Source of the DNA: a bacterium
GTDB lineage: Bacteria > Patescibacteriota > Minisyncoccia > Minisyncoccales > DG-74-3
Length of the DNA stretch: 64,000 bases
NCBI GenBank assembly: GCA_030603245.1
Contig: JAUVYE010000001.1
Coordinates: 1,418-65,417, forward strand
Direction: 5' to 3'
The notes under the pieces are model-generated. The model ran no database searches. It worked only from the letters and a program-made list of their open reading frames with translations, and was not told the DNA's origin. Below are positions 18,977 to 36,555 of this stretch, piece after piece (within the stretch, counting starts at the first letter, position 1; each line of letters begins with the position of its first letter). The position numbers and the translations under genes are program-made.

Positions 18977-19014
18977 CAATCTGATACAATATTTTAATAA
19001 TGTTTATCTATTAT

Positions 19015-19090
19015 GCCCCTGTGGTCTAATGGATATGACGCTGCGCTTCGGACGCAGAGATTGTGGGTTCGACTCCTACCAGGGGTACCA
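19015..19090 (+). tRNA. tRNA-Arg (anticodon TCG), CCA encoded
   Basis: Cloverleaf with acceptor stem GCCCCTG/CAGGGGT, anticodon stem CTGCG/CGCAG, loop CTTCGGA and T-loop TTCGACT. A 3' CCA is present. Confidence 0.75.
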
Positions 19091-19102
19091 AAAAAGCGTA
19101 AA

Positions 19103-19561
19103 GTGAAAAACGTAAAGCATAAAACAAAAAGAAGAAGTCAAGTATTGTTTATAGCAACTCTTTTGCTTTTTTTGTTTTTTTGTTTAATTCCTGATTATAC
19201 TGAAGCTGGTTTAGTACCTTGTGGTCGTAGCGTAGACGATCCTAATACTCGAGACATAGATGAAACTGATTTTTGTACACTATGCCATCTTTTTATTCTT
19301 CTCAATAATATTTTCACTTACTTTTTCAAATTTATTCTGCCAGTCGTAGCTACTGGTTTAATTGCTTGGGGAGGATTTACTTTACTCATAGCTGGAGAAA
19401 GTAAAACTAAGTTTGAACAAGCAAAAAACATAATAACAGCTGCAGTAGTAGGATTAGTCATTATTTTGGCTTCCTGGATATTTTTAAATATGTTTTTATC
19501 TTCTATCGGAGTAGCTGAATGGACTAGATTGGGAAGCTGGTGGAAAATTGAATGCCCCTAA
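19103..19561 (+). CDS. Small VirB2/TrbC-like pilin-family membrane protein with LVPCGR...PNT...HLFIL motif (start uncertain: GTG 19103 or TTG 19145)
   Basis: The given ORF's ATG (19013) lies inside tRNA-Arg, so a downstream start is required. The protein has a basic N-region, a hydrophobic signal-like segment, the GLVPCGRSVDDPNTRDIDETDFCTLCHLFILLNNI motif and two TM helices separated by AGESKTKFEQAKNII. The same motif occurs at the C-terminus of the 880-aa protein at 27584-30226. Confidence 0.5.
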   Translation: MKNVKHKTKRRSQVLFIATLLLFLFFCLIPDYTEAGLVPCGRSVDDPNTRDIDETDFCTLCHLFILLNNIFTYFFKFILPVVATGLIAWGGFTLLIAGESKTKFEQAKNIITAAVVGLVIILASWIFLNMFLSSIGVAEWTRLGSWWKIECP

Positions 19562-19562
19562 G

Positions 19563-19635
19563 GCCCTCATAGCTCAATTGGCAGAGCAGTTGCCTCTTAA
19601 GCAATTGGTTTCAGGTTCGAGTCCTGATGGGGGCA
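19563..19635 (+). tRNA. tRNA-Lys (anticodon CTT)
   Basis: Cloverleaf with acceptor stem GCCCTCA/TGGGGGC, anticodon loop CTCTTAA and T-loop TTCGAGT. It begins 2 nt after the pilin-like gene stop. Confidence 0.8.
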
Positions 19636-19654
19636 CAAAACTAAAATTAAAACT

Positions 19655-19927
19655 ATGTTAACAATTGAACAAAAAGAAAAAATCATTAAAAAATACAAAC
19701 TGCATAAATCAGACACTGGTTCTCCTGAAGTTCAGGTTGCCTTATTAAGTGATGAAATCAATCGTCTTCTTTTACATCTTAAAAAGCATAAAAAAGATCT
19801 TCATTCTAAAAGAGGACTTTTAAAAATGGTGGTAAAAAGAAGGTCTCTTTTAAATTATTTAAAAGACAAAAATACTAGAAGATACAACAGTATTATTAAA
19901 AAGGTTGGTCTAAAAACTAAAAAGTAA
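19655..19927 (+). CDS. rpsO: 30S ribosomal protein S15
   Basis: Typical S15 sequence ([13 protein letters not shown]...[16 protein letters not shown]...[12 protein letters not shown]). Confidence 0.9.
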
Positions 19928-20443
19928 ATGGTAACCGCTAAACACAAAGGCCAAAGAATAGCTGTCTTAATTGACGTTCAAAACCTCTATCACTCAGCTA
20001 AAAATCTTTATCGGGCCCGAGTTAATTTCAGGGCTGTTTTAAAATTAGCAGTAGGTGACAGAAACCTTATTAGAGCTTTTGCTTATGTAATTAAAACAAA
20101 AACAGGAGAAGAAAAAGCTTTTTTTGAAGCTTTAATAAAACTTGGGATAGAAACTAGGGTGAAAGAGTTACAGGAATTTTATGGAGGATTTAAAAAGGGT
20201 GATTGGGATGTAGGAATAACTATTGATGCTATTAGGATCTCTCCATCTGTTGATACTATTGTTTTAGCTTCAGGAGATGGTGATTTTCTTCAATTGGTTG
20301 AATATTTAAAAAATCAAGGAAAAAGAGTAGAAATGATTGCTTTTGGCAGATCTTCTTCGGCAAAATTAAAAGAAGCTGTTGATGAGTTTACAGATTTGGA
20401 AAAAAATACTCGAAAATATCTTTTAAAAATATTAAAAAAATAA
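19928..20443 (+). CDS. NYN-domain (LabA-like PIN-type) protein
   Basis: IAVLIDVQNLYHSAKNL start and a later ASGDGDF motif, both characteristic of NYN/LabA domains. Confidence 0.65.
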   Translation: MVTAKHKGQRIAVLIDVQNLYHSAKNLYRARVNFRAVLKLAVGDRNLIRAFAYVIKTKTGEEKAFFEALIKLGIETRVKELQEFYGGFKKGDWDVGITIDAIRISPSVDTIVLASGDGDFLQLVEYLKNQGKRVEMIAFGRSSSAKLKEAVDEFTDLEKNTRKYLLKILKK

Positions 20444-20446
20444 TTA

Positions 20447-22543
20447 ATGGAAAAATTTAAATTAAAACTTGGGGATAAAGATTTAATTGTTGAAATAAGT
20501 GATTTGGCAGAACAAGCTTCAGGTTCTTGTTTGGTTCAGTATGGAGACACCTTGGTTTTAGCTACTGCAGTTATGTCAGAACAAAAAAGAGAAGGCATAG
20601 ATTATTTTCCTTTATCAGTTAATTATGAAGAAAGACATTATGCGGCTGGAAAAATTTTGGGTTCAAGATATATGAGAAGAGAGGGAAGGCCTTCGGACGA
20701 AGCTATTTTAGCTTCTAGATTAATTGATAGGGCCATCAGACCTCTTTTTCCTAAAAGCCTTAAAAAAGACGTTCAGGTTATTATTACTTGTCTTTCCTGG
20801 GATAAAGAAAACGATCCAGATATTCTTGGCCTTTTAGCTGCATCTATTTCTCTCTTAATTTCAGATATTCCCTGGTTAGGACCAGTTGCTCCTCTTAGAA
20901 TTGGCCAGGAAAAAGAAAATTTTGTTATTAACCCCACCTATGCCCAAAGAGAGCAAAGTGATTTAGATTTAATCATTTCAGCTGTTGAGCGGAACAATGA
21001 AATCTTGATTAATATGATTGAAGCAGAAGCTAAAGAAATAGACGAAAAAACAGTTTTAAAAGCTATTGAATGGTCAAAACCTTCTCTTAAAAAATTAATT
21101 AATTTTCAAAATCAAATAGTTAAAAGGGTGGCTAAAAAGAAACAAGCTATTGAACTGGTTGATATTCAACCAAAATTACAAAAAGAAATTAAAGATTTTC
21201 TGGGAAACAAGTTTGAAAAAGCTTTAGCTCAAAAAATCAAAGAAGAGCAAGCTCAAGCAATAAAGCTTGTTAATCAAGAAGTATTAGATTTTGTGGCTGA
21301 AAAAGATCCAGAACAAAAACAAGCTGTTGTTAAAGAGTTTTTAGAACAAGAATTAAAAGATTTAATTAATCAAAATATTATTTTAAAAGAAAAAAGGCCT
21401 GATAATAGAAAATTAGATCAGGTTAGAAAAATCTCTTGTCGGGCCGGGCTTTTACCAAGAACCCATGGCTCTGGTCTTTTTTGCCGGGGTAGAACAAAAA
21501 CTCTTTCTATTCTCACTCTTGGTTCGCCAGGTGACGTTAAACTTTTTGCAAACATGGAAATGGTTGGAGAAAAGAAATTTATGCATCATTATAATTTTCC
21601 GCCATATTCAGTTGGAGAAGTAAGACCTATTAGAGGACCAGGTAGAAGAGAAATTGGACATGGTATGTTGGTTGAAAAAGCTTTAAAGCCAATTATTCCC
21701 AATTCTGAAAACTTTCCTTATACTATTAGAGTAGTTTCAGAAATCCTATCTTCTAATGGCTCAACCTCAATGGCTGCTGTTTGTGCTTCTTCTTTGGCTT
21801 TAATGGATGCTGGGGTACCAATTAAAGCCCCAGTGGCTGGAATCTCTTTGGGTTTAATAAAAAAGGGGGAAGATTACAAAATTTTAACAGATATTCAGGG
21901 GTTAGAAGATCATTATGGAAGTATGGATTTTAAAATAACTGGAACCAAAAAAGGAATTACTGCTATTCAAATGGACGTTAAAATTGATGGAATTCCAACT
22001 AAGATTTTGAAAGAAAGTTTTGCCCAGGCTCAAAAAGCAAGGTTTCAAATTTTAGACGAAATGAAAAAAACAATTTCCAAGTCAAGGCCAGAACTTTCTC
22101 CTTTTGCTCCTAGAATTTTAACTATCCAAATTAATCCCGATAAAATTAGAGATGTTATTGGAAAAGGAGGAAAAATAATTAATGAAATCATACAAGAATG
22201 TAATGTTTCAATTGATATTGAGGATACAGGTCAGGTTTTTATTACTTCAGAATCACAAGAATCAGCTCAAAAAGCAGTTGAATGGATAGAAAAACTTACC
22301 CGAGAAGCTAAGGTGGGAGAATCTTTTCAGGGAACAGTAAAAAAGATTTTAGATTTTGGAGCTTTTGTTGAAATTCTTCCTGGTCAAGAAGGGCTAATTC
22401 ATATTTCAAAACTGTCTCCGGGAAGAGTAGGAAAAGTAACTGATGTTGTCAAACTCAATGATATTGTAGAGGTTAAAGTAATTTCTATTGATGAACAAGG
22501 TAGAATAAATCTTTTGCTCAATAAGGTAATTAAAAAAGCTTAG
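20447..22543 (+). CDS. pnp: Polyribonucleotide nucleotidyltransferase (PNPase)
   Basis: Two RNase PH-like domains followed by KH (IGKGGKIINEI) and S1 (GTVKKILDFGAFVEI) domains. Conserved rpsO-pnp synteny. Confidence 0.9.
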   Translation: MEKFKLKLGDKDLIVEISDLAEQASGSCLVQYGDTLVLATAVMSEQKREGIDYFPLSVNYEERHYAAGKILGSRYMRREGRPSDEAILASRLIDRAIRPLFPKSLKKDVQVIITCLSWDKENDPDILGLLAASISLLISDIPWLGPVAPLRIGQEKENFVINPTYAQREQSDLDLIISAVERNNEILINMIEAEAKEIDEKTVLKAIEWSKPSLKKLINFQNQIVKRVAKKKQAIELVDIQPKLQKEIKDFLGNKFEKALAQKIKEEQAQAIKLVNQEVLDFVAEKDPEQKQAVVKEFLEQELKDLINQNIILKEKRPDNRKLDQVRKISCRAGLLPRTHGSGLFCRGRTKTLSILTLGSPGDVKLFANMEMVGEKKFMHHYNFPPYSVGEVRPIRGPGRREIGHGMLVEKALKPIIPNSENFPYTIRVVSEILSSNGSTSMAAVCASSLALMDAGVPIKAPVAGISLGLIKKGEDYKILTDIQGLEDHYGSMDFKITGTKKGITAIQMDVKIDGIPTKILKESFAQAQKARFQILDEMKKTISKSRPELSPFAPRILTIQINPDKIRDVIGKGGKIINEIIQECNVSIDIEDTGQVFITSESQESAQKAVEWIEKLTREAKVGESFQGTVKKILDFGAFVEILPGQEGLIHISKLSPGRVGKVTDVVKLNDIVEVKVISIDEQGRINLLLNKVIKKA

Positions 22544-22556
22544 AATTTAATTTTTT

Positions 22557-24440
22557 ATGCCAGAACAAAAAAAGGAAAAACTAGATTTCTTAAAAAGAGA
22601 GGAGATTAAAACAATGGCTAAAGATTTAGCTCTTTTAAGAGAATTAGAGGCTAAAAAACAGAGAGAAAAAATTGCTTCAATAAAGCTAAAAGAAGATCGT
22701 TTGGCTCAGGAAAAAAAATTAGAACAGATTCCAAAACAAGTCAAAGACAAACCTAAAAAAATATTCTCAATTTCAAAAAAACCCAAAATACCTTCTCGGT
22801 CTAAAAAAATATTAGTAAGGGGAATAATTATTCTTCTTTTTGTTTTGTTTTTGGGTGTAATTGCCTGGGTTTTTTGGCCCAAAGAAAAACCTTACATTCC
22901 TGAGTCTGAACAAGAGGTTGAAGAAGAGTTAGAAATACGAATTCCTGTTTCTTTAATTCCAATAGAAAAGACTAAAACCCCTGAGATTTCTAATGTTGAA
23001 GAAATCTCAACAATTCTTAATCAAATAATGCAGGAAGAAATAGTTCAAGGTGAATTTTTAAGAGTTGCGATTAAAAATATTGAAGAAGAAAGATTAGTTT
23101 CTTTTCAAGAACTTTCAGCTGGTCTTGGTATTGAAGTGCCTGAAGAAATGTATCAAAAAATAGATCAAGATTATACTTTGGCTTTTTATTCACAAGACAA
23201 AGAAAAAAGAGTGGTTTTAATAGCAAGGGTTAAAGAACATCAGGGCCTAATTGAGATATTAAAAAGCTGGGAAACACAAATACTTCAAAAAGGCATTGTA
23301 ATTTCAGAAGAACAGTATCCATCCTTAGCGCCCAGCTTTAAAGCTTCTTTTTATAAAGATATTGATTTTCGTTATTTAACTGTTTCAGAAGCTGATCTTG
23401 ATCTTTGTTATGCCTATTTTGATAACTATTTCTTAGTAACATCTTCTTTTGAGAGCTTTAAAAAAGTAATTGATGAAATAGAAAAACAAGAAACAAACAA
23501 TCAGATTGGTCAATTGTTTATTGTTGGTTTTGAGGGAAAAATTGTAACGCCTGAATTAGAAGAGTTTTTTAAAAAATACAAACCAGGTGGAGTGCTTTTG
23601 CTTTCTAAAAACATTGAGAGCGAAGCTCAATTAAAGAAATTAAACTCAGACTTACAAGCCCTTTCTTTAAGGGAAAGCGGATTGCCTCTTTTTATTGCTG
23701 TAGATCAAGAAGGGGGAATTATTTCCAGGGTTGATTTTTTAGAAGAGAAAACTGCTCAATCTGAAATTGAAACTACAGAACAAGCATTTTTGATTGGTCA
23801 AAAAAGAGGTGAAGCATTGAAAGAGTTGGGTATAAACCTTAATTTAGCCCCTGTTTTAGATTCTATTGAAACAGGAGATTTTCTTTTTGAGCGCTCTTTT
23901 CAAAAACCAATTGAAGAGATTGGCGAGTTAGGAAAAGCACTAATTCAAGGACAAAAAACAGCTGACATTTTAACAGCCATGAAACATTTTCCTGGATATG
24001 GAGCAATTTCTTTTCACCCAGAAGAAATTTTGGCTCGGGTTGAACAAATTCCTGAAATTTCTCAATTTAAAAAAGCAATGGAAGCCAATCCTGAATTAGT
24101 AATGACTTCAAATGTTGTTTATAAAGAAATTGATGCTTCTTTACCTTTTATTTTTTCTCCGGATGGAATTCAATTTTTAAGAAATAACTTGGGTATTAAT
24201 GTTTTAATAGTTTCTGATGACCTAGATCAAAACTCTCTTTTGAACAATTTTTCTTTAAAAGAAATGGTTGTTAAACCAATTGAAGCTGGAGTTGATATTA
24301 TGATTTTTTCTGGTTGGCGAAGTTCAGTAGAACAAGCATTAGAAGCATTTTTATCAGCGTTTGAAATTGGTGAAATTTCAGAAACAAGTGTTAATAATGC
24401 TGTTTCAAAGATTATTAACTTTAAACAAGACAATCTTTAA
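22557..24440 (+). CDS. Membrane-anchored glycoside hydrolase family 3 (NagZ-like beta-N-acetylhexosaminidase) with long N-terminal extension
   Basis: GH3 N-domain motifs (FIVGFEGK, KHFPGYGA) in the C-terminal ~330 aa, plus an N-terminal Lys-rich region and a TM segment. Confidence 0.65.
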   Translation: MPEQKKEKLDFLKREEIKTMAKDLALLRELEAKKQREKIASIKLKEDRLAQEKKLEQIPKQVKDKPKKIFSISKKPKIPSRSKKILVRGIIILLFVLFLGVIAWVFWPKEKPYIPESEQEVEEELEIRIPVSLIPIEKTKTPEISNVEEISTILNQIMQEEIVQGEFLRVAIKNIEEERLVSFQELSAGLGIEVPEEMYQKIDQDYTLAFYSQDKEKRVVLIARVKEHQGLIEILKSWETQILQKGIVISEEQYPSLAPSFKASFYKDIDFRYLTVSEADLDLCYAYFDNYFLVTSSFESFKKVIDEIEKQETNNQIGQLFIVGFEGKIVTPELEEFFKKYKPGGVLLLSKNIESEAQLKKLNSDLQALSLRESGLPLFIAVDQEGGIISRVDFLEEKTAQSEIETTEQAFLIGQKRGEALKELGINLNLAPVLDSIETGDFLFERSFQKPIEEIGELGKALIQGQKTADILTAMKHFPGYGAISFHPEEILARVEQIPEISQFKKAMEANPELVMTSNVVYKEIDASLPFIFSPDGIQFLRNNLGINVLIVSDDLDQNSLLNNFSLKEMVVKPIEAGVDIMIFSGWRSSVEQALEAFLSAFEIGEISETSVNNAVSKIINFKQDNL

Positions 24441-24444
24441 AAAT

Positions 24445-24813
24445 ATGGATAAAAAATTAATTCAAGAATTAAAAAACAATTTAGAAAAAGAAAAGGACAA
24501 ATTAGAAAAAATACTTGGCTCTTTTGCTCAAAAAGATGAAAAAGTGCCCGGGGACTGGGATACAAAATTTCCTTCTATGGGCCAGGGATCTGAAGGAGTT
24601 GATTTAGAAAGAGAGGCTGATGAGGTAGAAAAATACAGCACTCTTTTGCCAATTGAGCACAGCTTGGAAAAAAGACTTAAGAATGTGGATTTAGCTCTGG
24701 AAAATATTAAAAAAGGAAAATACGGGATTTGTGAAAAATGCAAAAAACCAATTAGCATTCAAAGATTAAAGGTTTCTCCCGAAGCAAGGATTTGTTTAAA
24801 GTGTAAAAATTAA
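24445..24813 (+). CDS. DksA/TraR-family C4-type zinc-finger protein (start at internal ATG rather than 24361)
   Basis: Coiled-coil N-terminus and C-terminal CEKC...(17 aa)...CLKC zinc finger. Confidence 0.6.
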   Translation: MDKKLIQELKNNLEKEKDKLEKILGSFAQKDEKVPGDWDTKFPSMGQGSEGVDLEREADEVEKYSTLLPIEHSLEKRLKNVDLALENIKKGKYGICEKCKKPISIQRLKVSPEARICLKCKN

Positions 24814-24826
24814 TTCTAAAAAACAT

Positions 24827-25012
24827 ATGTCAGACGAAATTAAACGTGCAATCAATAATTTAAAAGATGATTTAAAAAGAGAAGTGTCTAAATCAATTGA
24901 CATGCTTTACAATATTCAATCTCGGCTTGAAAGATTAGAAGAAGAATCAAAAAGAGAATTAAAGAATATAAAATACACCCTTAAAGACATTAAAGATAAG
25001 ATTAATAAATAG
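24827..25012 (+). CDS. Small coiled-coil hypothetical protein
   Basis: 61-aa charged helical ORF. Plus-strand operon context is the only support. Confidence 0.3.
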   Translation: MSDEIKRAINNLKDDLKREVSKSIDMLYNIQSRLERLEEESKRELKNIKYTLKDIKDKINK

Positions 25013-25026
25013 GATTTTCTGAAAAC

Positions 25027-25056
25027 TAAAAACCGCTTTTTAATGCGGTTTTTTAA
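25027..25056. terminator. Bidirectional intrinsic terminator between convergent genes
   Basis: AAAAACCGC-TTTTAAT-GCGGTTTTTT: a hairpin flanked by an A run and a T run. Confidence 0.6.
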
Positions 25057-25070
25057 TAATCAGTAATTAT

Positions 25071-26102
25071 TTATTGAGCGAATGGGTTTCGAGCTCCGCT
25101 TACTCCAAAATGAACGTGACAACCAGTAGATAATCCTGAACCAGGCATACCCCATCCACCACCCATTAAAGCAATACGATCACCCTGAGAAACTTTCTGT
25201 CCAACATTAACCAAGCTTTTAGCAATATGTCCATACATTGTTACAACTCCATTAGGATGTAAAATTTTAATATAGTTCCCCGCTCCTCCAAAAGCCCATT
25301 TAGAAGTAGAAGTGGTTAATTTTACTCTTAAAACCTCGCCTCCTGCAGCAGCATAAATTAGCTCATTGCATTTACCGTGACTAAAGTCAATTGCATTATA
25401 CCAGTGAAGTCCTTGAGTAATTCTGCACGGCAAAGCAATCGGACAAATAAAATAACTGGAGGCTAAAGGAACATATTGGGACACATAAAGAACAGATGGC
25501 GCAGGCATTATTCCATTAGGAATAACAAGAATATCACCAATAAAAATATCTCCTTCTGAGGAAAGACTATTAAATGCTATAATTTCTGATGTTTTTCCTT
25601 TATAAGTTTGAGCAATGTTTGAAATTATGTCTCCACTCTTAACATGATAAATCACTCCTGAAATTGGAGGAATAATCAGTTTTTTACCAAGTCTCAAAAC
25701 TGTATTTTCATTTAAATCATTAGCCCAAAGCAAACTCTTTAAAGAAATCTTAAATCTTCGGGCAATTGTTGAAAGATTGTCGCCAGACTCAACAACATAT
25801 TCAATAATTCCTTGTCTAATTTCTGACAAATCTACAGAACCAACCAAAGCTCCTAAAACCTGAGGGGACAGAGTGGTTGGAGGCAGAGAGGCTTTTAAAC
25901 TGTTTCTTTGAATTAAAAGAAAATCTGGGGATTCTAAAGAAAACTTGTTTGATGGACCTAAAAACAAATCATGTTGGCTTTTAACCTCAAAATTCTCCAT
26001 TGTAATTGGAGAATCATTGCCCAAAAGAATCAAAGATATCAATCCTAATAAGATAATCGCACTTGTGAAAATCTTTTTTCGCGACATATTTGAACTAAAC
26101 AT
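25071..26102 (-). CDS. LysM-domain M23-family peptidoglycan endopeptidase
   Basis: Two LysM repeats (YVVESGDNLSTIARRF, YHVKSGDIISNIAQTY) and C-terminal M23 motifs including HVHFGVS. Confidence 0.8.
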   Translation of the reverse strand: MFSSNMSRKKIFTSAIILLGLISLILLGNDSPITMENFEVKSQHDLFLGPSNKFSLESPDFLLIQRNSLKASLPPTTLSPQVLGALVGSVDLSEIRQGIIEYVVESGDNLSTIARRFKISLKSLLWANDLNENTVLRLGKKLIIPPISGVIYHVKSGDIISNIAQTYKGKTSEIIAFNSLSSEGDIFIGDILVIPNGIMPAPSVLYVSQYVPLASSYFICPIALPCRITQGLHWYNAIDFSHGKCNELIYAAAGGEVLRVKLTTSTSKWAFGGAGNYIKILHPNGVVTMYGHIAKSLVNVGQKVSQGDRIALMGGGWGMPGSGLSTGCHVHFGVSGARNPFAQ

Positions 26103-26220
26103 TGACCCTTTTAGGTCTAACTTTAGGATATCTTAGCAAGACTAAAAGTCAAGTGGATAAAAAAAAGCCAGAAATAATTCTGACATTGTGGTTAGGAGTT
26201 GAAAGTTAGTTCTTTCATCA

Positions 26221-26652
26221 TTATTCTTTCATCCTCTCTTTTATTTCCCCTAAAAGATCTTTTACGTCCTCTAGTGTTGTGGTTCTTCCTCCTGATCCTC
26301 CCTCGAAGCCCATTTCAAGAGAAAACATCACTATTCCTATTCCTATCCAGAATAACGATAGAAAGATTCCCTGTTCATATGATAGGCCAAAATCAAAGAG
26401 TTGAAAACAGAATAGACCGAATATTGTAAATCCTGTCCAGATTGCGGAGAGATTACCAAACAATGCTACCCCAATACATATTATGATGCTTAACGGAAGA
26501 AGCATCCTGATTCTTTCTGGGGCAAGAGTCCAAGTAGTCTCAATAAAATCTGATTTGATGGGACGGTCCATCACATACACAGAAACAATGGTTGCTAACA
26601 AAGCAATCCATACTCCTATCAACTTTCTTTTTTCTTCAGAACTAATTTCCAA
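26221..26652 (-). CDS. Hypothetical small membrane protein
   Basis: 143 aa with 3-4 predicted TM helices and no motifs. Confidence 0.3.
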   Translation of the reverse strand: MEISSEEKRKLIGVWIALLATIVSVYVMDRPIKSDFIETTWTLAPERIRMLLPLSIIICIGVALFGNLSAIWTGFTIFGLFCFQLFDFGLSYEQGIFLSLFWIGIGIVMFSLEMGFEGGSGGRTTTLEDVKDLLGEIKERMKE

Positions 26653-26759
26653 AGAACATCACATCCTCTAATTAAATAATAAAATGTTTCTAATAAAAAG
26701 TCAAGGGAAGGGTTCTAATGATAAGCATCACAATTTCTGTGATAGAATAAAATATATTT

Positions 26760-27584
26760 ATGAATCTCATATCAAAAAGTGTAGTTAAACAAGTTTTAGA
26801 CAAATACCAAGTTAGACCTTTAAAAAGATTGGGGCAGAATTTTTTAGTTAATAAAAAAGCTCTCAATGATTTTATTAATGCTTGTGATTTGAGAAAAAGT
26901 GATGTTGTTTTGGAAATTGGCCCTGGACTTGGAACAATAACTCAAGAAATAGCCAAAAAAGTAAAAACAGTTATTGCAATAGAAAAAGACAAGAAAATGT
27001 GCGAAATCATGAAAGAAACATTATCTGATTTAAATAATATAGAAATAATTAATCAAGATGTGTTGAAAATTTTCAATTCCCAATTTTCAATTTCCAATTA
27101 TAAAGTAGTAGGAAATCTTCCTTTTTATATCACAGCGCCTGTTATTAGAAAATTCTTAGAAACCAAAAATCAACCAAAAGAAATGATTTTCATGATTCAA
27201 AAAGAAGTAGGGCAAAGAATTTGTGCAAAGCCGCCGAAAATGAGTCTTTTAGCTGTATCAGTTCAATTTTATGCTAAGCCAAAAATTGTTTCGTATCTTC
27301 CAAAAAATTCTTTTTGGCCTCAACCAAAAGTAAACTCAACTATTATTAAAATAATTCCTCAAAAACAAACTATTGTTAATGCAAAATTATTTTTTGAGGT
27401 TGTAAAAGCAGGATTCGCTCATCCCAGAAAACAATTAAGAAACAATCTTTCAAAACGATTAAAAATGAACAAAGAAAAAACTGAACAATGGCTTTTGAGA
27501 AACAATATTCAGCCCAATCAAAGAGCAGAAACTTTAAAAGTTCAAGATTGGATAAATCTCACAAAAACAATTAAAATGAATTAA
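26760..27584 (+). CDS. rsmA: 16S rRNA (adenine1518/1519-N6)-dimethyltransferase
   Basis: KsgA motifs LGQNFLVN and the SAM-binding VLEIGPGLGTIT. Confidence 0.9.
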   Translation: MNLISKSVVKQVLDKYQVRPLKRLGQNFLVNKKALNDFINACDLRKSDVVLEIGPGLGTITQEIAKKVKTVIAIEKDKKMCEIMKETLSDLNNIEIINQDVLKIFNSQFSISNYKVVGNLPFYITAPVIRKFLETKNQPKEMIFMIQKEVGQRICAKPPKMSLLAVSVQFYAKPKIVSYLPKNSFWPQPKVNSTIIKIIPQKQTIVNAKLFFEVVKAGFAHPRKQLRNNLSKRLKMNKEKTEQWLLRNNIQPNQRAETLKVQDWINLTKTIKMN

Positions 27585-30226
27585 TGTCAAAAAAATCTTT
27601 TTTAAAATTTCTGTTTTTTTTGTTCTTAGTCCTCAATTTTTTAAGCTTTGGGGAATTTGTTTTAGCTTGCGAGGAAGGAGAAACTCAAGATTGCGAAACC
27701 TGCGGAGTTCAAACCTGTGATGATTGTTATGAGAAAGAAATTGATTTCGGCATAGAAATAATAATAATGACTGTTTGTGATTGGGGAAACTGTGACCCTG
27801 ATAGTCAAACTCAAGACTGTGACATTTGTGGTGTTCAAGAATGCCAGTGTGAGGGCAACTCTTGTTGGTGGGACGATTGTGATGAAACATCAAAGCCAAG
27901 GACAAAAAGAACAAGCAATTGGACTGAATACCGCTGCCAGGAAGATGGATGTGGTCAAGAATATATCCAAAAAAGAAAATGTGAAGAAACTTGTACTAGA
28001 ACTTGTTGGTGTATAGGCGGAGGGGAATGGGAATGTTCAAGCTACTCGGATTGTGATACGGATTGCGACAGCCCAGAGCCTGTAGAAGAATGTGACTTAG
28101 ATTGGCAGCTTTGTTATGGAAGCAATGAATGGAGTAGATCTGCTCGTAGTTGTAATTGTGCAGGAACATGTTTAGAAACACCAAAAAATCCAAGATACTA
28201 TAATAACCCGAACTATCCAACTGATCCTTATGAACCAGAAGAATCAGAAGATGCTAATAATATTTTTTTGCCAGTTAAATTAGATTGGGACAATGTTAAA
28301 GCATGGAAAAATGATTGGGAAGAAAATGGAGAATTAAAAGAATGTTCAGAAGATTGTTTTCAATCATATTTGATTGAAATAAGCAATACAGCTTCTGGTA
28401 ATTTCTCAAAAGCTTTGACTCAAGATTCTGAATATAATCCAACACAAGACCAAGGAGCTTGTTTCTTAAAATCGGGAATAACTCATAATTTGGACGTAAG
28501 CGCTTGTTGTAATACAAACGGTACTAATTGCAGTTCTAAAAGCAACTGGAGTTTTGATACTAAATCTGCTCCAGAACCCATTTTGCCGGCTGATTTTGAT
28601 TGGAAAGAAGAAGAAATTAAATCTGGAGTTGAAATCCCAGTATTCCTTGATTGGTGCGATGTTAATAATGCCAAATCTTTTAGAATAAAAATTCATTATA
28701 TTAAAGATGGTCAAGAACTATGCCATCCCTGGCTTGTGTCAGGACAAAGCTGTGACTCTGAGATAATTACAACAGAAAACAGGCCTCCCCCATATTATGA
28801 TCCCACTAAAGATATTCTATATTCTGATTTTCAAGATAATGAGGGATTTTTTACTAAAGATACAGAATACAGGTGGGAATTAGCAACTTGTTTTAATGAA
28901 AATGGAACAAATTGTAGTGATTTTGGTCAAAAATGGGGATTTGATACTACTTTGGTTTCATTACCCTATCTTCAATTAGAGTCTCCGCCCAATGACCCTA
29001 ATGGTAAACAAGCAGTAGGTTTTCCAGTCATTTTAGAATGGAAACATGAACCAGGAATGAATTCTTTTGTTTATGATGTTTATAAAGAAAATCCAGGAGA
29101 ACTTACTGGCAATCTTAATCTTTCCCAAAAAGTTTTTGATTATCCAACGCTTTCTTTAAATACTTTTTATACTTGGAGAGTTAAGCCTTGTTGGGATTAT
29201 GAAGGATTAGATTGCGAAGATTGGCCAGCAGGCCAAGAATGGGTTTTTAAAACCACTGGAGCTGCACCAAATTTAATTTATCCAGAAAATAATGATTCTA
29301 ATGTTCCAATTCCAATAAAATTAGAGTGGGAAGGTATGTCAGGCGCTAAATCATATAAATATTGGGTATATTCTAGTGGAGAGTTAATTGCAAACAACAT
29401 TGTTGAAGACAGTTCTGTTTTAATTAAATACGATCCTGTTTCAAAAGAACCCAAGCAAGAAACTAATTATTCCTGGCAAATTGCAACCTGTGCTGATGAA
29501 AAGGGGGAAATTTGTGGCCTTCCTACAAGTCTGTGGAAATTTACAACCTTTAAACTTTCTCCTCCATCAAACTTATTACCAGAAAATAATGAAACAGTTT
29601 TTACCTATCAAATGCCTAAAAGCTTTTCTTGGGATTCAGATGCAAAATATTTTAGATTTACTTTAGATTATATTCAAAAAGCAGAACAAGAGGTTGGGAA
29701 TTGTGCTCTTGAAAGACAAAAAAAAATCACTGATAATAATCTTTATTCTCTTTCTTTAAGTTGCTTGGGAGAATACCAATGGCAAGTTCAAGCTTGTTTA
29801 GATGAAAACTGCGATCAAGAAGGAACCGCAAGCTCTGTTCAGAATTTCATCTTAGATCAAGCTACTCCTCCCACTCAATTTGGTTTAGTTCCTTGTGGCA
29901 GAAATTCAGACAATCCAAACACTCCTTGGAATGAAAGAGACAGTTGTCAATTTAAGCATCTTTTTATTCTTTTTAAAAATATTATTGATTTTCTTTTATG
30001 GAGAGTAACTTTGATTATTTTGCTTTTACTAGTCATAGCTACAGCAATAATATTTTACTTCTCAATAGGCGCCCCTGCTCTTATAATTGACATCAGAGGT
30101 GTTTGGAGAGCAGCTGGAAAGGGTTATGCAATTATTTTTATGTCTTGGATAATTATTAATCTTGTTTTAAATATTTTAGGATATCAAATTGGAATTTTTG
30201 GCCAGTGGTGGCAAATTAATTTCTAA
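27584..30226 (+). CDS. Secreted 880-aa Cys-rich repeat protein (putative adhesin/tip module) fused to a C-terminal VirB2-like pilin domain
   Basis: Signal peptide, then an N-terminal CxxC-rich region with duplicated TQDC(E/D)(T/I)CGVQxC. About 5 tandem ~100-aa modules follow, each ending W-x-[VI]-x-[AP]-C-x3-G-x2-C...W-x-F-x-T (FN3-like by pattern). The last ~115 aa are GLVPCGRNSDNPNTPWNERDSCQFKHLFILFKNI plus two TM helices, a paralogue of the 19103-19561 protein. Confidence 0.5.
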   Translation: MSKKSFLKFLFFLFLVLNFLSFGEFVLACEEGETQDCETCGVQTCDDCYEKEIDFGIEIIIMTVCDWGNCDPDSQTQDCDICGVQECQCEGNSCWWDDCDETSKPRTKRTSNWTEYRCQEDGCGQEYIQKRKCEETCTRTCWCIGGGEWECSSYSDCDTDCDSPEPVEECDLDWQLCYGSNEWSRSARSCNCAGTCLETPKNPRYYNNPNYPTDPYEPEESEDANNIFLPVKLDWDNVKAWKNDWEENGELKECSEDCFQSYLIEISNTASGNFSKALTQDSEYNPTQDQGACFLKSGITHNLDVSACCNTNGTNCSSKSNWSFDTKSAPEPILPADFDWKEEEIKSGVEIPVFLDWCDVNNAKSFRIKIHYIKDGQELCHPWLVSGQSCDSEIITTENRPPPYYDPTKDILYSDFQDNEGFFTKDTEYRWELATCFNENGTNCSDFGQKWGFDTTLVSLPYLQLESPPNDPNGKQAVGFPVILEWKHEPGMNSFVYDVYKENPGELTGNLNLSQKVFDYPTLSLNTFYTWRVKPCWDYEGLDCEDWPAGQEWVFKTTGAAPNLIYPENNDSNVPIPIKLEWEGMSGAKSYKYWVYSSGELIANNIVEDSSVLIKYDPVSKEPKQETNYSWQIATCADEKGEICGLPTSLWKFTTFKLSPPSNLLPENNETVFTYQMPKSFSWDSDAKYFRFTLDYIQKAEQEVGNCALERQKKITDNNLYSLSLSCLGEYQWQVQACLDENCDQEGTASSVQNFILDQATPPTQFGLVPCGRNSDNPNTPWNERDSCQFKHLFILFKNIIDFLLWRVTLIILLLLVIATAIIFYFSIGAPALIIDIRGVWRAAGKGYAIIFMSWIIINLVLNILGYQIGIFGQWWQINF

Positions 30227-30230
30227 AACA

Positions 30231-30911
30231 ATGAGTAAAGTAATAAAAATCCTTGTCGTTTTAGTAATTGTTCTTTTGCTTATTATTGTTTTGGGCAATT
30301 ATTTTTTACAACAACAACTAAAACAAGTAGGAGGAGTAGATTTTTCAGAAATAATATCCCAAATTGAAGGATTGTCATCTGAGCAAATTTTAAAATCTCA
30401 AGCAGAAAAAGAGAGTAGTAAAAAATTCATTAGTCCAGATAAAAAACTAAAAATAGAGTATTCTTTGAGGTGGATAGAAACACCGAGCGAAAGTTTGGAA
30501 AGAATCGTTCCGAATGAACAAATTCAAAAATACAACTTAACCAATTTGCTTTTAGCTCAACGATTCGAAATTAGTGGAGAATTTGCTCAATTAATTATTG
30601 ACCAGGCATTTTTTGACATCCAAAAGTCTTTTGAGCAAATTATTGATGAAATGCAGAAAGCTAATCTTGAACAGGGATGGAATATGGAAGTTATTGAATC
30701 AAAAACTGAAAACAATGAAATTATTTTTGAAGCAAGGTATGAAAAAAGCAAAAGCCATAGTGTTTATTCCAAAGAAAAGATAATATTTCTTGAACCAGAA
30801 GAAAACAATAAAAAAGCTTATTTAATTAGCTTTATTACTCTTAATAAAGATTGGTTAAAATTTAAAGAAGAGGCAAACAAAATCTTTGAATCTGTTGAAA
30901 TAAGTCAATAA
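30231..30911 (+). CDS. Hypothetical N-terminally membrane-anchored protein
   Basis: Single N-terminal TM (ILVVLVIVLLLIIVLG) followed by a soluble domain. The listed ORF start at 30189 overlaps the upstream gene, so the ATG at 30231 is preferred. Confidence 0.35.
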   Translation: MSKVIKILVVLVIVLLLIIVLGNYFLQQQLKQVGGVDFSEIISQIEGLSSEQILKSQAEKESSKKFISPDKKLKIEYSLRWIETPSESLERIVPNEQIQKYNLTNLLLAQRFEISGEFAQLIIDQAFFDIQKSFEQIIDEMQKANLEQGWNMEVIESKTENNEIIFEARYEKSKSHSVYSKEKIIFLEPEENNKKAYLISFITLNKDWLKFKEEANKIFESVEISQ

Positions 30912-30972
30912 ATTGCTTTATTCTTGACAAATATAAAAAATAAGGTAAAAAGAGAGTAGAAAGTGTTAAAAA

Positions 30973-31707
30973 TTGAATAAAGGAAAGCAAGATAAAACAT
31001 TTGGCAATTTCAACAAATCCACGATGATTACAGCTATTGTTATAACAATTATCGCAATAGGCAGTATTGGTTACTACACCATATTCTACAAACCAAGCCC
31101 ATCAGGACCACCCACCATTCCAGCAACCTCACCAGCCAACATTGGTAAACAAACGGATCCTACTACAGAAAGCACTGAAACAACCTCTGAGCTAATAAAT
31201 ACAACCTCTCCCGAGCCTGAGATATCTAATATTACAGATACTTCTACTGTTTCTGAAGATGAACTAAATGCAACTCAACCCGAAATACCAGAACCTGATT
31301 CTGCAATCATCACAATGAACGTTTCTGATCTCCATGATCTCTATATAGATGCTTATTTCACCTACGACAGAAGAGAAGCGAAAGACAAGATAGAAAATCT
31401 AACTGGTAAGGTCATTAGAGTAAGAGGGGTTTTCAGGATGTCGGCAAGAAAAAAAGCAGAAAACAATGAAACCTATGAAATAGTAATCCTGTTTGGAACG
31501 AATAATGAAAGTAATCCCAAAGACATCTTTATCTACTTACCTTTTACCGAGGAGGTCCTCCAAGAAGTAGCTGCTATAAAATATCCAGATGTAGTTGTTG
31601 TCCAGGGAGAATTCTATCCAGGACCACCTGAACCTTTGCCATTTTATCCTCCTAAGATTGGATACAGTATAGTTGCACGTTTGAAGAATTGCCAATTAGT
31701 ACCTTAA
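30973..31707 (+). CDS. Membrane-anchored Thr/Ser/Pro-rich surface protein with C-terminal OB-fold (tRNA_anti-like/BOF-type) domain
   Basis: TM anchor, a low-complexity T/S/P/E linker, then a domain with LTGKVIRVRGVF...YEIVILFG typical of OB-fold BOF/tRNA_anti-like modules. Start is TTG at 30973 or ATG at 31022. Confidence 0.4.
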   Translation: MNKGKQDKTFGNFNKSTMITAIVITIIAIGSIGYYTIFYKPSPSGPPTIPATSPANIGKQTDPTTESTETTSELINTTSPEPEISNITDTSTVSEDELNATQPEIPEPDSAIITMNVSDLHDLYIDAYFTYDRREAKDKIENLTGKVIRVRGVFRMSARKKAENNETYEIVILFGTNNESNPKDIFIYLPFTEEVLQEVAAIKYPDVVVVQGEFYPGPPEPLPFYPPKIGYSIVARLKNCQLVP

Positions 31708-31794
31708 GGACTTTACAGTCCTGTTTTTTTATTTCTAAAAAAAAGTGATATAATAATTATAGAATGAGATTTTTTGTTATGATATAATATTAAA

Positions 31795-32736
31795 ATGAAA
31801 AAGCTTTACATAAGTAAAAAACTCTTTTTCTTTTTAACACTATTGGTGGTTTTGGGTATTGCTTCTAATGCTTTGGCTTTAGAGTTAAATTGGCCTGTTT
31901 CCCCAGGAAAAACTGAACTGACTGAAAAAAGCAATATTTCAGAAATGGTTAAATACTTCTATGAGTGGGGAATATCTTTGGGTGGAATAGCAGTATTTTT
32001 TTCTTTAATAATGGCTGGTTTTAAATATTTAACTTCAGTGGGAAACGAAAACAAAATGAGAGAGGCTAGAGACAGAATTAACTCTTCTCTTTTGGGACTT
32101 TTGCTTCTTTTATCTTCCTTTCTTATTCTTAATACTATTAACCCTGAACTAACTACTTTAAGAATGCCTGATGATATAAAATCTGCTTCTCAAAATCTGA
32201 TACCTATAGACGTAGGTAAACCAGATACTTCTGATCCTTGTAAAAAAGTAATTGTCTATAGTGAGACTAATTTTCAAGGTAATTCATTTGAGATTCTACC
32301 GGGACTAACGTCTGGGGACCTATCTGCTACTGCTAAAATAGGAGGGGAAGCTCTCTCAATTGAGATTTTTGGCTTTTGTAAGGCAGAACTATATTCATCA
32401 AAAAACTGTTGGTGGAAAGCAGACCTAATGACCACAATTTACACTAGCTTGCCTGATATTGCTTCTGTATACCTAAACGATCCTGTTGTTTGTGTTAGAA
32501 ATTTAGCAGGAATCACTTCTTCGCCATGTGATGAGAACTGTTCTAAGTGTAGTAAAGAAATAGATTGTATAACTAGTTCTTCTAATTGTATTTGGCAAAA
32601 CTACCTTTGTATTGAATCAACATGCGATACAAATTGTAGTGAATGTACTACGTTCGCGGACTGTATTTCGAGTTGGGCTGAGTCTGGTTGTGTCTGGACC
32701 CCTTATGAAACATGTGAGCCAGAACTGTTTGAGTAA
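31795..32736 (+). CDS. VirB2/TrbC-like pilin-family protein with C-terminal Cys-rich duplicated module
   Basis: Signal peptide, then a two-TM hairpin (GGIAVFFSLIMAGFKYLTSVGNENKMREARDRINSSLLGLLLLLSSFLIL) matching the TM1-AG-loop-TM2 pattern of the other two pilin-like domains. C-terminal ~190 aa contain repeated C(D)xNCS(K/E)C...DCI(T/S)S...C(I/V)W units. Confidence 0.45.
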   Translation: MKKLYISKKLFFFLTLLVVLGIASNALALELNWPVSPGKTELTEKSNISEMVKYFYEWGISLGGIAVFFSLIMAGFKYLTSVGNENKMREARDRINSSLLGLLLLLSSFLILNTINPELTTLRMPDDIKSASQNLIPIDVGKPDTSDPCKKVIVYSETNFQGNSFEILPGLTSGDLSATAKIGGEALSIEIFGFCKAELYSSKNCWWKADLMTTIYTSLPDIASVYLNDPVVCVRNLAGITSSPCDENCSKCSKEIDCITSSSNCIWQNYLCIESTCDTNCSECTTFADCISSWAESGCVWTPYETCEPELFE

Positions 32737-35700: not shown

Positions 35701-36555
35701 ACCCCAGAAGAAATGCTTAATAAAGAAAAAGGAGTTGATATTATGCAGGAGAGATTAAAAGAATTTAATCAAAATCCATTAGTAGTACAAGCCAAAAGAG
35801 ATGTACGAAAGCTGAAACAAAAAATAAGGTTAACTCAAGATAAAACAGAAAAAACTAGACTCCGAAAAGATTTATCTAGTCATAAAGAAAGATATTCTTC
35901 AGTATTCGAAATTGCTCCAAAACTAGAAAAAGCTTACAGAGAACAAAAAAGAGGATTGCCAAAGACAAAAGGTGCACTAGAAAAATTACAAACCCAAAAA
36001 TTAACAGCAATTAGTAATCTGAATTTGAAAAAATCAAAAGATTTAGAATTAAAAATAGAAAATCAGGAAAAATTAGCAGATAGTTCACGCTACAGATTGT
36101 CTGTATTGTTACCAGGCGAGATTGACAGATTGATGGACGTCGTACAAGAAGAAAAAGTAAAAGGCACCGTTCCGTTTATTCCGCGACCGTCAAAAACTCC
36201 TCCGTCGACAACAACACCAACCACACCATCAGATCCACAGTCTCCGCCACCCCTATCCTCACCGCCACCACCAGACGAAATTCCTCCTGAGGATTTAGAA
36301 AAAATCAGGAAAGAATTCAAAACAAAAACAGAAAGAGTACTGAAAGACATCTCCAGCTTCGAAGAACTGAATAAGGCGCTAGATGATCTTGGAGAGATAC
36401 AGGGCAGCAAAAAACTTTATTCGACAAAAGAACTTAAAGAAATAATTAAGGATATTAGAATTGGAAAGAAAACTCTCTCTCATGTAACAAGAGAGGGAGG
36501 GCTAAGAAGAGTGGTAAGAAAATTGATTAGCTTAGAAAAAAAGAATACACGTTAA
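32764..36555 (+). CDS. Giant VirB6/TrbL-like polytopic membrane protein with ~800-aa coiled-coil and Pro-rich C-terminal extension
   Basis: The first ~390 aa carry at least 8 TM helices; the VirB6-like call rests on this topology and the neighbouring T4SS genes. Long K/E-rich heptad coiled coil follows. Pro/Thr/Ser-rich segment TPPSTTTPTTPSDPQSPPPLSSPPPPDEIPPE at about nt 36180-36300. Confidence 0.45.
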   Translation: MPEKFKSFFSKIITDKRLKIALFSFIVLFSIFIPLKRADAIWGIGDIGLFDLAQTQLDALDFVDSVILRLVIFIFVLIVESEIFIFTAANLLQWAMNLPINIGIGATKNLLVASGWQFTLGLTNLFFILALVIIALAHILGLSTFEMKKALPKLIIIALLVNFSLVFIGMFVDIVNIFQNAILDALGKDLVTLAIQPLITSAKSVAAWFVLIPTTYLITALIPFGNVIAAVAVGSTILTDIVSGGILLKGLFLIIINLLIGTIFLFYFVFFLMRIAMIWILAIFAPLAFFSYILPQTQGVWREWLKTLSEWLTLGIVAIFLTGLGLKLFATTGDNAILDWGGDINTGRGSLPAFIYNYLFLLVYMGIAAYYSIKYTPQMANTLLDYGKGFAGGVRKIATTRTMKRDVWGPAAEQLADTEKWGQRLIGRAKEAEIEGKIGRAMFMRWAGRGAGGLGKAVGTATKPFRPGLIEYAAQQRRTAKPKGWDQMSVADKSNYINALTQDKEKMVLASQMATEGTFAHAGNEFQEQILGIAKGFSKDDRNKALYGKEIGDIYDVIPDGVTLESELDLKATKQDKEELRKKIEGKAKEITANAGLPEDQYTQNLDLAAAVLRIKAMKTADLVKMKKASLTSMAGRLASHEMTSQQIQRIYNTFGRDTIDDIFKGDGGLNDIFENKKQKEGQKLLDQAYRRNPALVHFFANTPAGRAMNWSGLKYMDRNENNKIDFDKFKERLSEEEREREEEKEKEAAVVPKPVSRVKQFEKDILSKLAEQKEIKAQISEHKKELRGVKTAATRIDVENNIKEKEKTLKINQAEIKKLQKSYSEEWKAEKIALTEAAAETEEPKAKLLSEVEKLKALDKAAEKIESDNALFISKLEDREKVSKLTEKEQEAYKQYKEAYNSAFTERKEIKSKLDASEKYANKISLRLKNIRGIENNLEITKKEALTSGNLEKVKNAELAMEHLKQEKTSIEKILATSTPEEMLNKEKGVDIMQERLKEFNQNPLVVQAKRDVRKLKQKIRLTQDKTEKTRLRKDLSSHKERYSSVFEIAPKLEKAYREQKRGLPKTKGALEKLQTQKLTAISNLNLKKSKDLELKIENQEKLADSSRYRLSVLLPGEIDRLMDVVQEEKVKGTVPFIPRPSKTPPSTTTPTTPSDPQSPPPLSSPPPPDEIPPEDLEKIRKEFKTKTERVLKDISSFEELNKALDDLGEIQGSKKLYSTKELKEIIKDIRIGKKTLSHVTREGGLRRVVRKLISLEKKNTR

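Follow-up and report, generated by a model that had tools for sequence, protein, structure and literature searches.

The window, the stretch of DNA analysed here, covers 64,000 nucleotides (nt) of contig JAUVYE010000001.1 from a patescibacterium. Its G+C content is about 32%, its genes include dnaA (at 42185), dnaN, rnpA and yidC, and the named homologues of its proteins belong to Candidatus Nealsonbacteria, Paceibacterota and Parcubacteria. It encodes three pilin-like proteins on the forward strand. Copy A (19103..19561) is a stand-alone protein of 152 residues with a GTG start, copy B (27584..30226) is a giant pilin of 880 residues, and copy C (31795..32736), with 313 residues, lies directly upstream of a gene for a VirB6-like protein. 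An earlier examination of the letters, here called the sequence-only reading, had located three pilin-like domains at these places, and the locations agree with ours: copy A at 19103-19561, the pilin part of copy B at residues 764-880 (nt 29873-30223) and that of copy C within 31795-32736. Its identification of the three as secretion pilins of the VirB2/TrbC type is supported by the family membership of copy A and its relatives and, for copies B and C, by an operon that also encodes PrgI, a TrsD-like protein and VirB4 of a type IV secretion system (T4SS). The 13.6 kb interval from A to C is otherwise occupied by housekeeping genes that bear no relation to the pilins, namely rpsO, the genes for a NYN protein, for PNPase, for a GH3 enzyme, for a DksA-like protein and for a LysM/M23 peptidase, and ksgA.

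Three related two-helix pilins

Copies A and B are related at the level of pairwise comparison. BLASTP aligned them with an E-value of 2e-16 and 35% identity over 126 residues, and the alignment includes the motif GLVPCGR..D.PNT...C...HLFIL on which the sequence-only reading had based their kinship; the two also have the tail motif G..(F/L)G.WW.I in common. Their similarity extends to the nucleotides, as had been proposed (GGTTTAGT.CCTTGTGG and CATCTTTTTATTCTT). Neither A nor B gave a significant pairwise BLASTP match to C, and linking C to the other two therefore needs profiles. A hidden Markov model (HMM) built from 24 outside homologues of A, with the window's own sequences excluded, scored A at 168.5 bits, B at 87.1 bits and C at 27.5 bits (whole-sequence score, E 5e-8; best domain 26.3), and it matched no fourth protein among the 452 stop-to-stop open reading frames (ORFs) of the window. 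An hhalign comparison of 108 A/B-type domain sequences with 101 C-type domain sequences gave a probability of 97.9% (E 6e-13, score 72) across helix 1, the loop and helix 2, whereas the reversed C alignment scored 16 and 20 column-shuffled alignments scored 6-23, with a control probability of at most 13%. Because the score lies far above those of the reversed and shuffled controls, we regard the hairpin as homologous in the three copies, beyond a shared hydrophobic composition; the motif columns are conserved, which disposes of the concern that the similarity might be of low complexity only.

All three copies combine a Sec signal peptide with a two-helix hydrophobic hairpin, whose short loop is basic with a net charge of +1 to +2. 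The signal peptide of copy A comprises residues 1-35 (nt 19103-19207), with predicted cleavage at TEA|G, and is followed by a preamble from G36 to C61 (nt 19208-19285), the helix-loop-helix (residues 60-135, nt 19280-19507) and the tail GVAEWTRLGSWWKIECP (nt 19508-19558). The AlphaFold2 (AF2) model of copy A, with a predicted local distance difference test score (pLDDT) of 78.7, places the helices at residues 60-96 and 101-135 and joins them by the loop GESK. The hairpin of copy B spans residues 790-864 (nt 29951-30175), with modelled helices at 790-826 and 831-864; it is preceded by the LVPCG preamble (residues 764-793, nt 29873-29962) and followed by a short tail (residues 865-880, nt 30176-30223). 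Copy C is of a different, WPxSP type. Its signal peptide (residues 1-28) leads into a pilin domain free of cysteines (residues 29-122, nt 31879-32160) that has a conserved preamble of its own, LExxWPxSPxG, and then YFYEWGI..GG and LILNTINPELT.

The hairpin that had been noticed in all three proteins is thus borne out by the outside HMM and by hhalign, and for A and B also by the modelled helices. The loop pattern A(K/R)(N/D)(I/R)I that had been ascribed to the whole set holds for A (AKNII) and C (ARDRI) and fails for B, which has DIRGVW. Since modules of extracellular type are attached to the hairpin at either end, both termini should lie outside and the loop in the cytoplasm, as in VirB2 and TraA, and we infer an N-out/C-out topology for the three copies.

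Copy A passes the gathering cut-off of the Pfam family PF18895 (T4SS_pilin), with 34.8 bits (35.4 from the GTG start) against 26.6. Among 44 A-type sequences, comprising copy A and 43 relatives, PF18895 was found in 42, and PF04956 (TrbC/VirB2) at E<=0.01 also in 16. Copy A itself stays under the PF04956 cut-off of 27.9, with 11.4 bits (E 0.39), and is linked to this family via its relatives (P0236 with 51.2 bits and P0078 with 32.3 bits). Copy C falls below the cut-off of PF18895 (22.2 against 26.6 bits), and most of the 120 listed homologues of copy C carry a precomputed match to it. Given the outside HMM (E 5e-8) and the hhalign result, copy C is, judged by its sequence, a divergent member of the PF18895 family. 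Copy B has no match to any Pfam family, and its C-terminal 141 residues do not match PF18895 even at E<=10. In a set of 17 B-type sequences (copy B and 16 orthologues) PF18895 was found at E<=0.01 in four, and two orthologues exceed the cut-off (P0214 with 27.4 bits and P0234 with 29.5 bits). Most B-type proteins therefore lie below the reach of Pfam, and surveys that rely on PF18895 would under-count them.

The family is large, and its members are variously decorated. At E<=1e-3 the A-type profile matched 45,095 cluster representatives among 1.84 billion; the stricter limit of E<=1e-10 leaves 9,434. The top 145 relatives of copy A divide into 70 stand-alone proteins, 53 with C-terminal extensions (Ig, PKD, DUF4215), 14 with N-terminal modules (e.g., a beta-helix) and 8 concatemers. 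The modular decoration that the sequence-only reading saw in copies B and C is thus supported and is pervasive in the family. The concatemers are single polypeptides of 471-933 residues with 4-8 tandem hairpins and no LVPC motif (P0236, P0237, P0244, P0246, P0254, P0258, P0297 and P0342); P0236, which has eight hairpins, reaches 223 bits against PF18895, spread over 8 stretches. For a filament subunit, an array of pilins joined in a single polytopic chain is unusual.

Structure comparison contributed little to the identification of copy A. Foldseek found nothing below E 2 for its model in the PDB, the helical hairpin being too simple to be informative, and the A-type profile, run against all PDB sequences, gave only chance matches to membrane proteins (E>=0.01). 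We also considered a pilin of the type IV pilus and rejected it: reading the sequences, we find no class III signal of the form G|F/M-x-x-x-E, and the proteins have two hydrophobic helices, not one.

The GLVPCG motif and its cysteines

The position of the GLVPCG motif differs between members of the family. In 143 relatives that carry it in the N-terminal region, the motif starts at residue 20-40, mostly 4-9 residues past the hydrophobic core of the signal peptide, and AxA|G is the typical junction. This location just past the core suggests that ordinary cleavage by signal peptidase would leave the motif at the N-terminus of the mature protein. In copy B the motif is internal, 767 residues into the protein (the cysteine-bearing LVPC begins at about 768), with no signal peptide nearby. 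The same is seen in 12 of 14 independent N-terminal fusions, where the junction falls within 7 residues upstream of LVPC and hundreds of residues from any signal peptide. That the motif stands at the start of the domain in these fusions indicates that it is part of the pilin domain and not of the leader.

The residue directly before LVPC is a nearly invariant glycine, and the cysteines are conserved in a regular pattern. Of 248 sequences, 247 have the LVPC cysteine and all have the cysteine that comes after it. The second cysteine of the CxxC and the cysteine of the C-terminal tail are both present in 174 sequences and both missing from 72, with one discordant sequence of either kind; for an optional cysteine upstream of LVPC and a cysteine at the start of the first transmembrane helix the corresponding counts are 20/9/7/212. 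The number of cysteines in the mature protein is even in each copy: 4 in A (40, 58, 61 and 151, the coil GLVPCG...C..C preceding helix 1), 48 in B, all of them extracytoplasmic, and 16 in C. In the sequences this pattern suggests a disulfide cap, in which the LVPC cysteine would pair with the invariant cysteine about 8-40 residues on and close a loop before helix 1. In A-type proteins a second disulfide would connect the second CxxC cysteine to that of the C-terminal '..CP', tying together the two ends of the protein that face outward.

Several points weigh against this arrangement. The class of sequences with neither cysteine is almost a single clade (69 B-type sequences and 3 others), so that there are few independent events and the p-value of Fisher's test is inflated. 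The AF2 confidence of the preamble is just 57-71. An alternative pairing, C40 with C151 together with a bond inside the CxxC, may also be possible. Finally, many of these organisms are anaerobes, which bears on the formation of disulfides outside the cytoplasm.

The sequence-only reading had put the motif forward as a candidate site of processing or cyclisation, as known from TrbC. If G|LVPCG were the site of a dedicated peptidase, copy B would be cleaved there, which would free the FN3 stalk described below or create a standard pilin N-terminus, possibly with subsequent cyclisation. Pilins of the VirB2 type are classically processed, the glycine at -1 is nearly invariant, the motif belongs to the best-conserved segment of the B-type proteins (66% identity), and 2 of 72 B-type homologues (P0194 and P0201) contain a Peptidase_C39_2 domain. 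However, the A-type motif already lies at the end of the predicted signal-peptidase I product, and an additional protease is unneeded. Furthermore, TrbC-type cyclisation needs a removable C-terminal propeptide, whereas most A-type proteins of at most 200 residues in which the tail motif is retained stop 1-6 residues past the conserved tail cysteine, and thus show no apparent propeptide of the TrbC kind. A regular-expression search of the ORFs in the 64 kb window, which is a weak test, found no motifs of S26/TraF/LepB, LspA or Lgt and none of the thioredoxin-like CxxC type. Disulfides account for the paired invariant cysteines, and a cleavage signal does not. We therefore consider a dedicated peptidase site improbable; GLVPCG is probably neither a cleavage nor a cyclisation site, and marks the start of the pilin domain proper.

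The resemblance of L-V-x-C to the first positions of a lipobox raises another explanation, namely that the LVPCG cysteine is lipidated, or else that the Cys/Cys/Cys/His of C...CxxCH binds a metal. A histidine does follow the CxxC position, with aspartate in many A-type proteins (CHLF or CDLF), and H792 is nearly invariant in the B-type. But the proline at -1 is invariant (V38 P39), and the canonical lipobox, [LVI][ASTVI][GAS]C, disallows it; in copy A and its closest relatives charged residues (D/E) stand between the h-region and the cysteine; and in copy B and about 12 fusions the motif is internal and hundreds of residues away from any signal peptide. The weak motif test of the window revealed neither Lgt nor LspA. 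As to a metal, B-type proteins have just two cysteines at this place, too few for a tetrahedral site. The lipobox is thereby ruled out as the identity of the motif, and lipidation or metal binding has very little probability left. The preferred reading of GLVPCG as a disulfide-capped domain start has no counterpart that we could find under this name: a literature search for 'LVPCG' returned nothing relevant.

Gene setting and decoration of the copies

Copy B carries its pilin domain at the end of a long extracellular module (nt 27668-29872). Behind the signal peptide (residues 1-28) lie a variable, cysteine-rich head with low model confidence (residues 29-105), a beta domain (residues 106-224) and five domains that resemble fibronectin type III (FN3) domains (residues 225-760). 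The AF2 model has a pLDDT of 83.4 overall and of more than 90 in the five beta-sandwich domains at 225-760, and Foldseek matched this stalk to strings of FN3 domains, with E 2e-14 for gp130 and E 4e-11 for fibronectin (1fnf, FN3 7-10). The C-terminal pilin domain is kept in all 72 homologues of copy B, which are 708-1075 residues long, with scores of 68-101 bits. Conservation among the B-type proteins climbs from the head toward the membrane: identity is 15% in the head, which is 69% gapped, 36-47% in the stalk, 55% in the hairpin and 66% in the extracellular preamble, the highest value of any part.

The combination of an FN3 stalk, a variable head and a highly conserved base is the reason why we read copy B as adhesin-like. 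It is probably a pilin-anchored adhesin that presents a host-binding head, and thus a candidate adhesin or host-range factor; this interpretation proceeds by analogy. In FimH and PapG of chaperone-usher pili, a receptor-binding module at the N-terminus is followed by a C-terminal pilin domain, through which the protein is plugged into the fibre. Copy B, with its variable distal head and conserved base, would be like them in logic only; there is no relationship in sequence or fold, and the pilin part of copy B is a helical hairpin in the membrane, not an Ig-like pilin. The N-terminal region of 2 of the 72 homologues contains a papain-like Peptidase_C39_2 domain (P0194 in a direct scan, P0201 according to a precomputed Pfam column), which could bear on self-processing or on attack of the host cell wall.

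In the T4SS operon, copy B comes first. Its ATG overlaps the stop codon of ksgA (ATGA, window 27581-27587), and the same junction is found in loci L002 (10001) and L003; the T4SS operon thus seems to be translationally coupled to a housekeeping gene, that of the rRNA dimethyltransferase KsgA. Copies B and C both lie inside an operon-like block with the genes for PrgI, the TrsD-like protein and VirB4. Between them are x1 (30189..30911, plus strand, probably starting at a Met at about 30231), which encodes a single-pass membrane protein of no assigned function and occupies this position in most related loci, and the less conserved x2 (30973..31707, plus strand), whose product likewise crosses the membrane once, has a Pro/Thr-rich linker and belongs to no known family. 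Copy C is followed by the gene for the VirB6-like protein (32764..36555, plus strand), a polytopic membrane protein of 1263 residues named by position and topology only. Pfam and NCBIfam scans of this protein, x1 and x2 returned no matches. The N-terminal third of the VirB6-like protein is polytopic, and the protein also has a Lys/Glu-rich coiled coil of about 600 residues and a stretch rich in Pro, Ser and Thr; its length ranges from about 750 to 1260 residues among loci where it is complete.

The remaining genes of the block have database support. PrgI (VirB3-like; 37538..37945, plus strand) matches PF12666 with 36.1 bits against a cut-off of 27. The TrsD/TraC-like protein (37926..38579, plus strand), related to the N-terminal part of VirB4, matches NF045975 (E 5.5e-10) and NF041427 TrsD (E 3.3e-5), and its orthologue in L001 matches PF26593 (TraC-like). 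The VirB4 ATPase (38576..40378, plus strand) is of the monoderm CD1110 type (NF045971, 371 bits against a cut-off of 325; PF19044). VirB4 is thus split, with the TrsD/TraC-like protein of 217 residues overlapping the start of the 600-residue ATPase by 4 nt, as reported for most Patescibacteria. Jag, YidC, rnpA and dnaA follow on the 3' side of VirB4. On the other side of ksgA, a LysM/M23 peptidase is encoded on the minus strand (25071..26102); its L001 orthologue (89% identity) has the Pfam domains LysM and Peptidase_M23. VirB1 homologues with M23/LysM domains are known, and Paceibacteria are the only class in which VirB1 homologues are highly associated with virB4 (PMC12102498). From its context, the peptidase is a plausible VirB1-like wall hydrolase of the T4SS.

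We compared this arrangement with 18 full-length B-type loci from other Paceibacteria genomes, including the complete genome CP179889.1. The order ksgA-B-x1-(x2)-C-VirB6-like-...-PrgI-TrsD-VirB4 is found in about 17 of the 18, CP179889.1 among them; nearly all related loci have the LysM/M23 peptidase directly upstream of ksgA-B, and the position of the VirB6-like gene is conserved in all. B directly precedes the VirB6-like gene in four loci, one locus has a tandem pair of B-type genes and another a tandem pair of C-type genes.

The C-terminal part of copy C is a module with 16 cysteines (residues 123-313, nt 32161-32733). It contains two examples (residues 245-307, window 32527-32733) of a mini-domain of about 30 residues with six cysteines, CxxxCxxCx5Cx6Cx6-8C, often with a Trp. 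Similar cysteine-rich modules occur N-terminal to the pilin domain in the C-type proteins P0068, P0072, P0075, P0138, P0145, P0149, P0150, P0155 and P0157. Their sequences suggest that the mini-domain is a mobile decoration module, for which Pfam has no model. We did not accept a beta/gamma-crystallin identity for the C-terminal module, the best values being E 0.12 in the PDB and 12.4 bits for PF00030 against a cut-off of 25. Copy C, a divergent pilin, may be a second decorated minor subunit.

Copy A lies apart from the operon, squeezed between two tRNA genes. A gap of 12 nt separates the tRNA-Arg(TCG) gene (19015..19090, plus strand, ARAGORN) from the GTG of copy A, the tRNA-Lys(CTT) gene (19563..19636, plus strand) begins 1 nt after the stop of copy A, and rpsO is next at 19655. 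A longer ORF of 182 residues from the ATG at 19013 is a calling artefact: it opens by translating the tRNA-Arg ('MPLWSNGYDAALRTQRLWVRLLPGVP'), and the homologues start at the GTG at 19103. The same sandwich of tRNA-Arg(TCG), A-type pilin and tRNA-Lys(CTT), upstream of rpsO, is present in the window (19015-19636) and in three other genomes, at loci L001 (1859-2457), L013 (1312-1942) and L015 (226-868). In L002 (3218-3378), which has no A-type gene at this site, the same two tRNA genes are adjacent, 13 nt apart. The tight packing suggests co-transcription with the tRNAs and a nearly leaderless mRNA that is freed by tRNA processing. Copy A is the sole undecorated copy, and as a small protein encoded inside a tRNA/ribosomal-protein transcription unit it would be the best candidate for the abundant major subunit.

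The sequence-only reading had taken the three copies for a lineage-specific expansion. This does not agree with their distribution. A, B and C each form a conserved orthologous group at a fixed chromosomal position across genomes of Paceibacteria and Parcubacteria, and the conserved order and positions therefore point to three old groups and not to a recent expansion.

Interpretation and known systems

Patescibacteria, which are ultrasmall and depend on hosts, possess a chromosomal T4SS, often close to dnaA, that is related to the conjugation systems of monoderm bacteria and unusually includes VirB2-like pilins, for whose detection PF18895 and PF04956 were used. In 383 assemblies the divergent pilin genes form arrays of 2-11, and Ca. 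Southlakia epibionticum cannot do without its array (PMC12102498, PMC12857230, PMC10633639). That a patescibacterial T4SS can have multiple divergent pilins has thus been published (PMC12102498, PMC10633639). In methanogenic enrichment cultures, the T4SS pilin genes of Patescibacteria populations rank with the most strongly expressed of their genes of unknown function (PMC10936435). No adhesins were detected for the patescibacterial T4SS (PMC12102498), and the same paper makes no mention of pilin fusions, FN3 domains or cysteine motifs.

The arrays of Ca. Southlakia epibionticum (SEML1_0006-0019) and Ca. Nanosynbacter lyticus TM7x are the closest parallel to the genes described here. They belong to the same PF18895 family, with several divergent paralogues per genome, and are likewise encoded with PrgI, TrsD, VirB4 and a VirB6-like protein near dnaA, with no relaxase nearby. 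They differ in that the pilins of the window form no tandem array but three dispersed orthologous groups with fixed positions, one between two tRNA genes, one leading the operon and one just ahead of the gene for the VirB6-like protein. Moreover, two of the three copies here carry large extracellular modules, the B-type lies mostly below PF18895 detection, and neither pilin-adhesin fusions nor an LVPCG cap are mentioned in the published text consulted.

As a whole, we find it somewhat more probable than its opposite that A, B and C are ancient VirB2-like PF18895 paralogues that serve a chromosomal, origin-proximal T4SS of the monoderm type in a Paceibacteria/Parcubacteria-like genome, with A as the major subunit, B as an adhesin, C as a minor subunit and GLVPCG as the start of the domain. 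Under this reading the three proteins would be exported by Sec and inserted as N-out/C-out hairpins, and the VirB4/PrgI/VirB6-like machine would use them as subunits of the VirB2 type. Copy A would be the abundant subunit, the LVPCG-type hairpin of copy B would serve as the base of the five-FN3 stalk, the beta domain and the hypervariable cysteine-rich head, and copy C would provide a second decorated minor subunit. The case has its weak sides. The functional steps for A, B and C (filament, adhesion, disulfide) are all inferred, and copy A is located 19 kb from virB4, tied to the T4SS solely by the family to which it belongs and by the conservation of its position. No solved T4SS pilus offers a precedent for a VirB2-type subunit with 735 residues loaded onto its N-terminus, and such a load could not sit on every subunit of a helical filament.

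In the main rival reading no filament would be formed, as in other monoderm T4SSs, and the hairpin would be a membrane anchor of copies B and C or a part of the translocon or stalk. Monoderm (MPF-FATA) systems are generally without pili (PMC12102498, PMC12857230), large modules at either end are hard to fit into a helical pilus, and the concatemers of 4-8 hairpins resemble polytopic membrane proteins more than pilus subunits. Against this stand the sequence homology to TrbC/VirB2 (16 of 44 A-type sequences; 51 bits for P0236) and the conservation of a small undecorated copy A beside its decorated paralogues. Also, conservation within B peaks in the extracellular preamble, which is unexpected for a passive anchor, and a pilus is considered likely by reviews (PMC12857230). 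We therefore regard a role as anchor or translocon part as unlikely, and retain the interpretation of the three copies as pilus subunits.

Compared with TrbC of RP4, VirB2 of the Ti plasmid and TraA of F, the copies are alike in having a cleavable leader, a pair of hydrophobic helices linked by a short basic loop, and ends that, in the topology proposed here, would lie outside; they are also alike in being encoded with VirB3, VirB4 and VirB6. They differ in the weak match of copy A to PF04956 and in the monoderm host, and domains as large as those at the N- or C-terminus of B and C are unknown in classical VirB2 pilins. TrbC undergoes a TraF-dependent head-to-tail cyclisation of which we see no sign here; the predicted disulfide between N-terminal cap and C-terminal tail would play a comparable role. 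A further relative in architecture is the pilin-like protein Mbov_0395/MMCAP2_0565 (NF045849) of a Mycoplasma integrative and conjugative element, which is also a small two-helix protein of a VirB4 system in a wall-less or monoderm host. Copy C aligns to 69 of the 80 profile positions of NF045849 but is not a member (21.4 bits against a cut-off of 40), and the locus in the window is no mobile element.

A more far-reaching proposal joins these points: the LVPCG-type pilins would form a distinct subclass of VirB2-like pilins in which disulfides (a loop in the N-terminal cap and a bond from the start of helix 1 to the C-terminal tail) replace the cyclisation of TrbC/VirB2. Copy B, as a tip pilin or a minor one, would supply the adhesin that the Paceibacteria T4SS has seemed to lack, and the hypervariable cysteine-rich head on its five-FN3 stalk would set host specificity. 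We put this forward tentatively, being rather doubtful that all of its parts hold together.

Neither the family nor the multi-pilin T4SS is new, and if our reading were wrong the genes would still be an ordinary instance of this family. What appears to be undescribed is the giant FN3-pilin that Pfam largely misses, the LVPCG/cysteine cap as a signature of a subfamily and the fixed arrangement of three loci in Paceibacteria. The one patescibacterium that is genetically tractable cannot live as an epibiont without its T4SS, and at issue are the recognition of the host and the build of a 'Gram-positive T4SS with pilins' (PMC10633639, PMC12857230). For Paceibacteria, our comparison describes the pilin set as a fixed trio and not as a variable array. 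The GLVPCG...C(xxC) cap offers a simple hypothesis of disulfide stapling and a motif by which such proteins may be found. The T4SS operon opens with a pilin-based protein of about 700-1075 residues that has an FN3 stalk and a variable head, and this protein is a concrete candidate for an adhesin or a determinant of host range.

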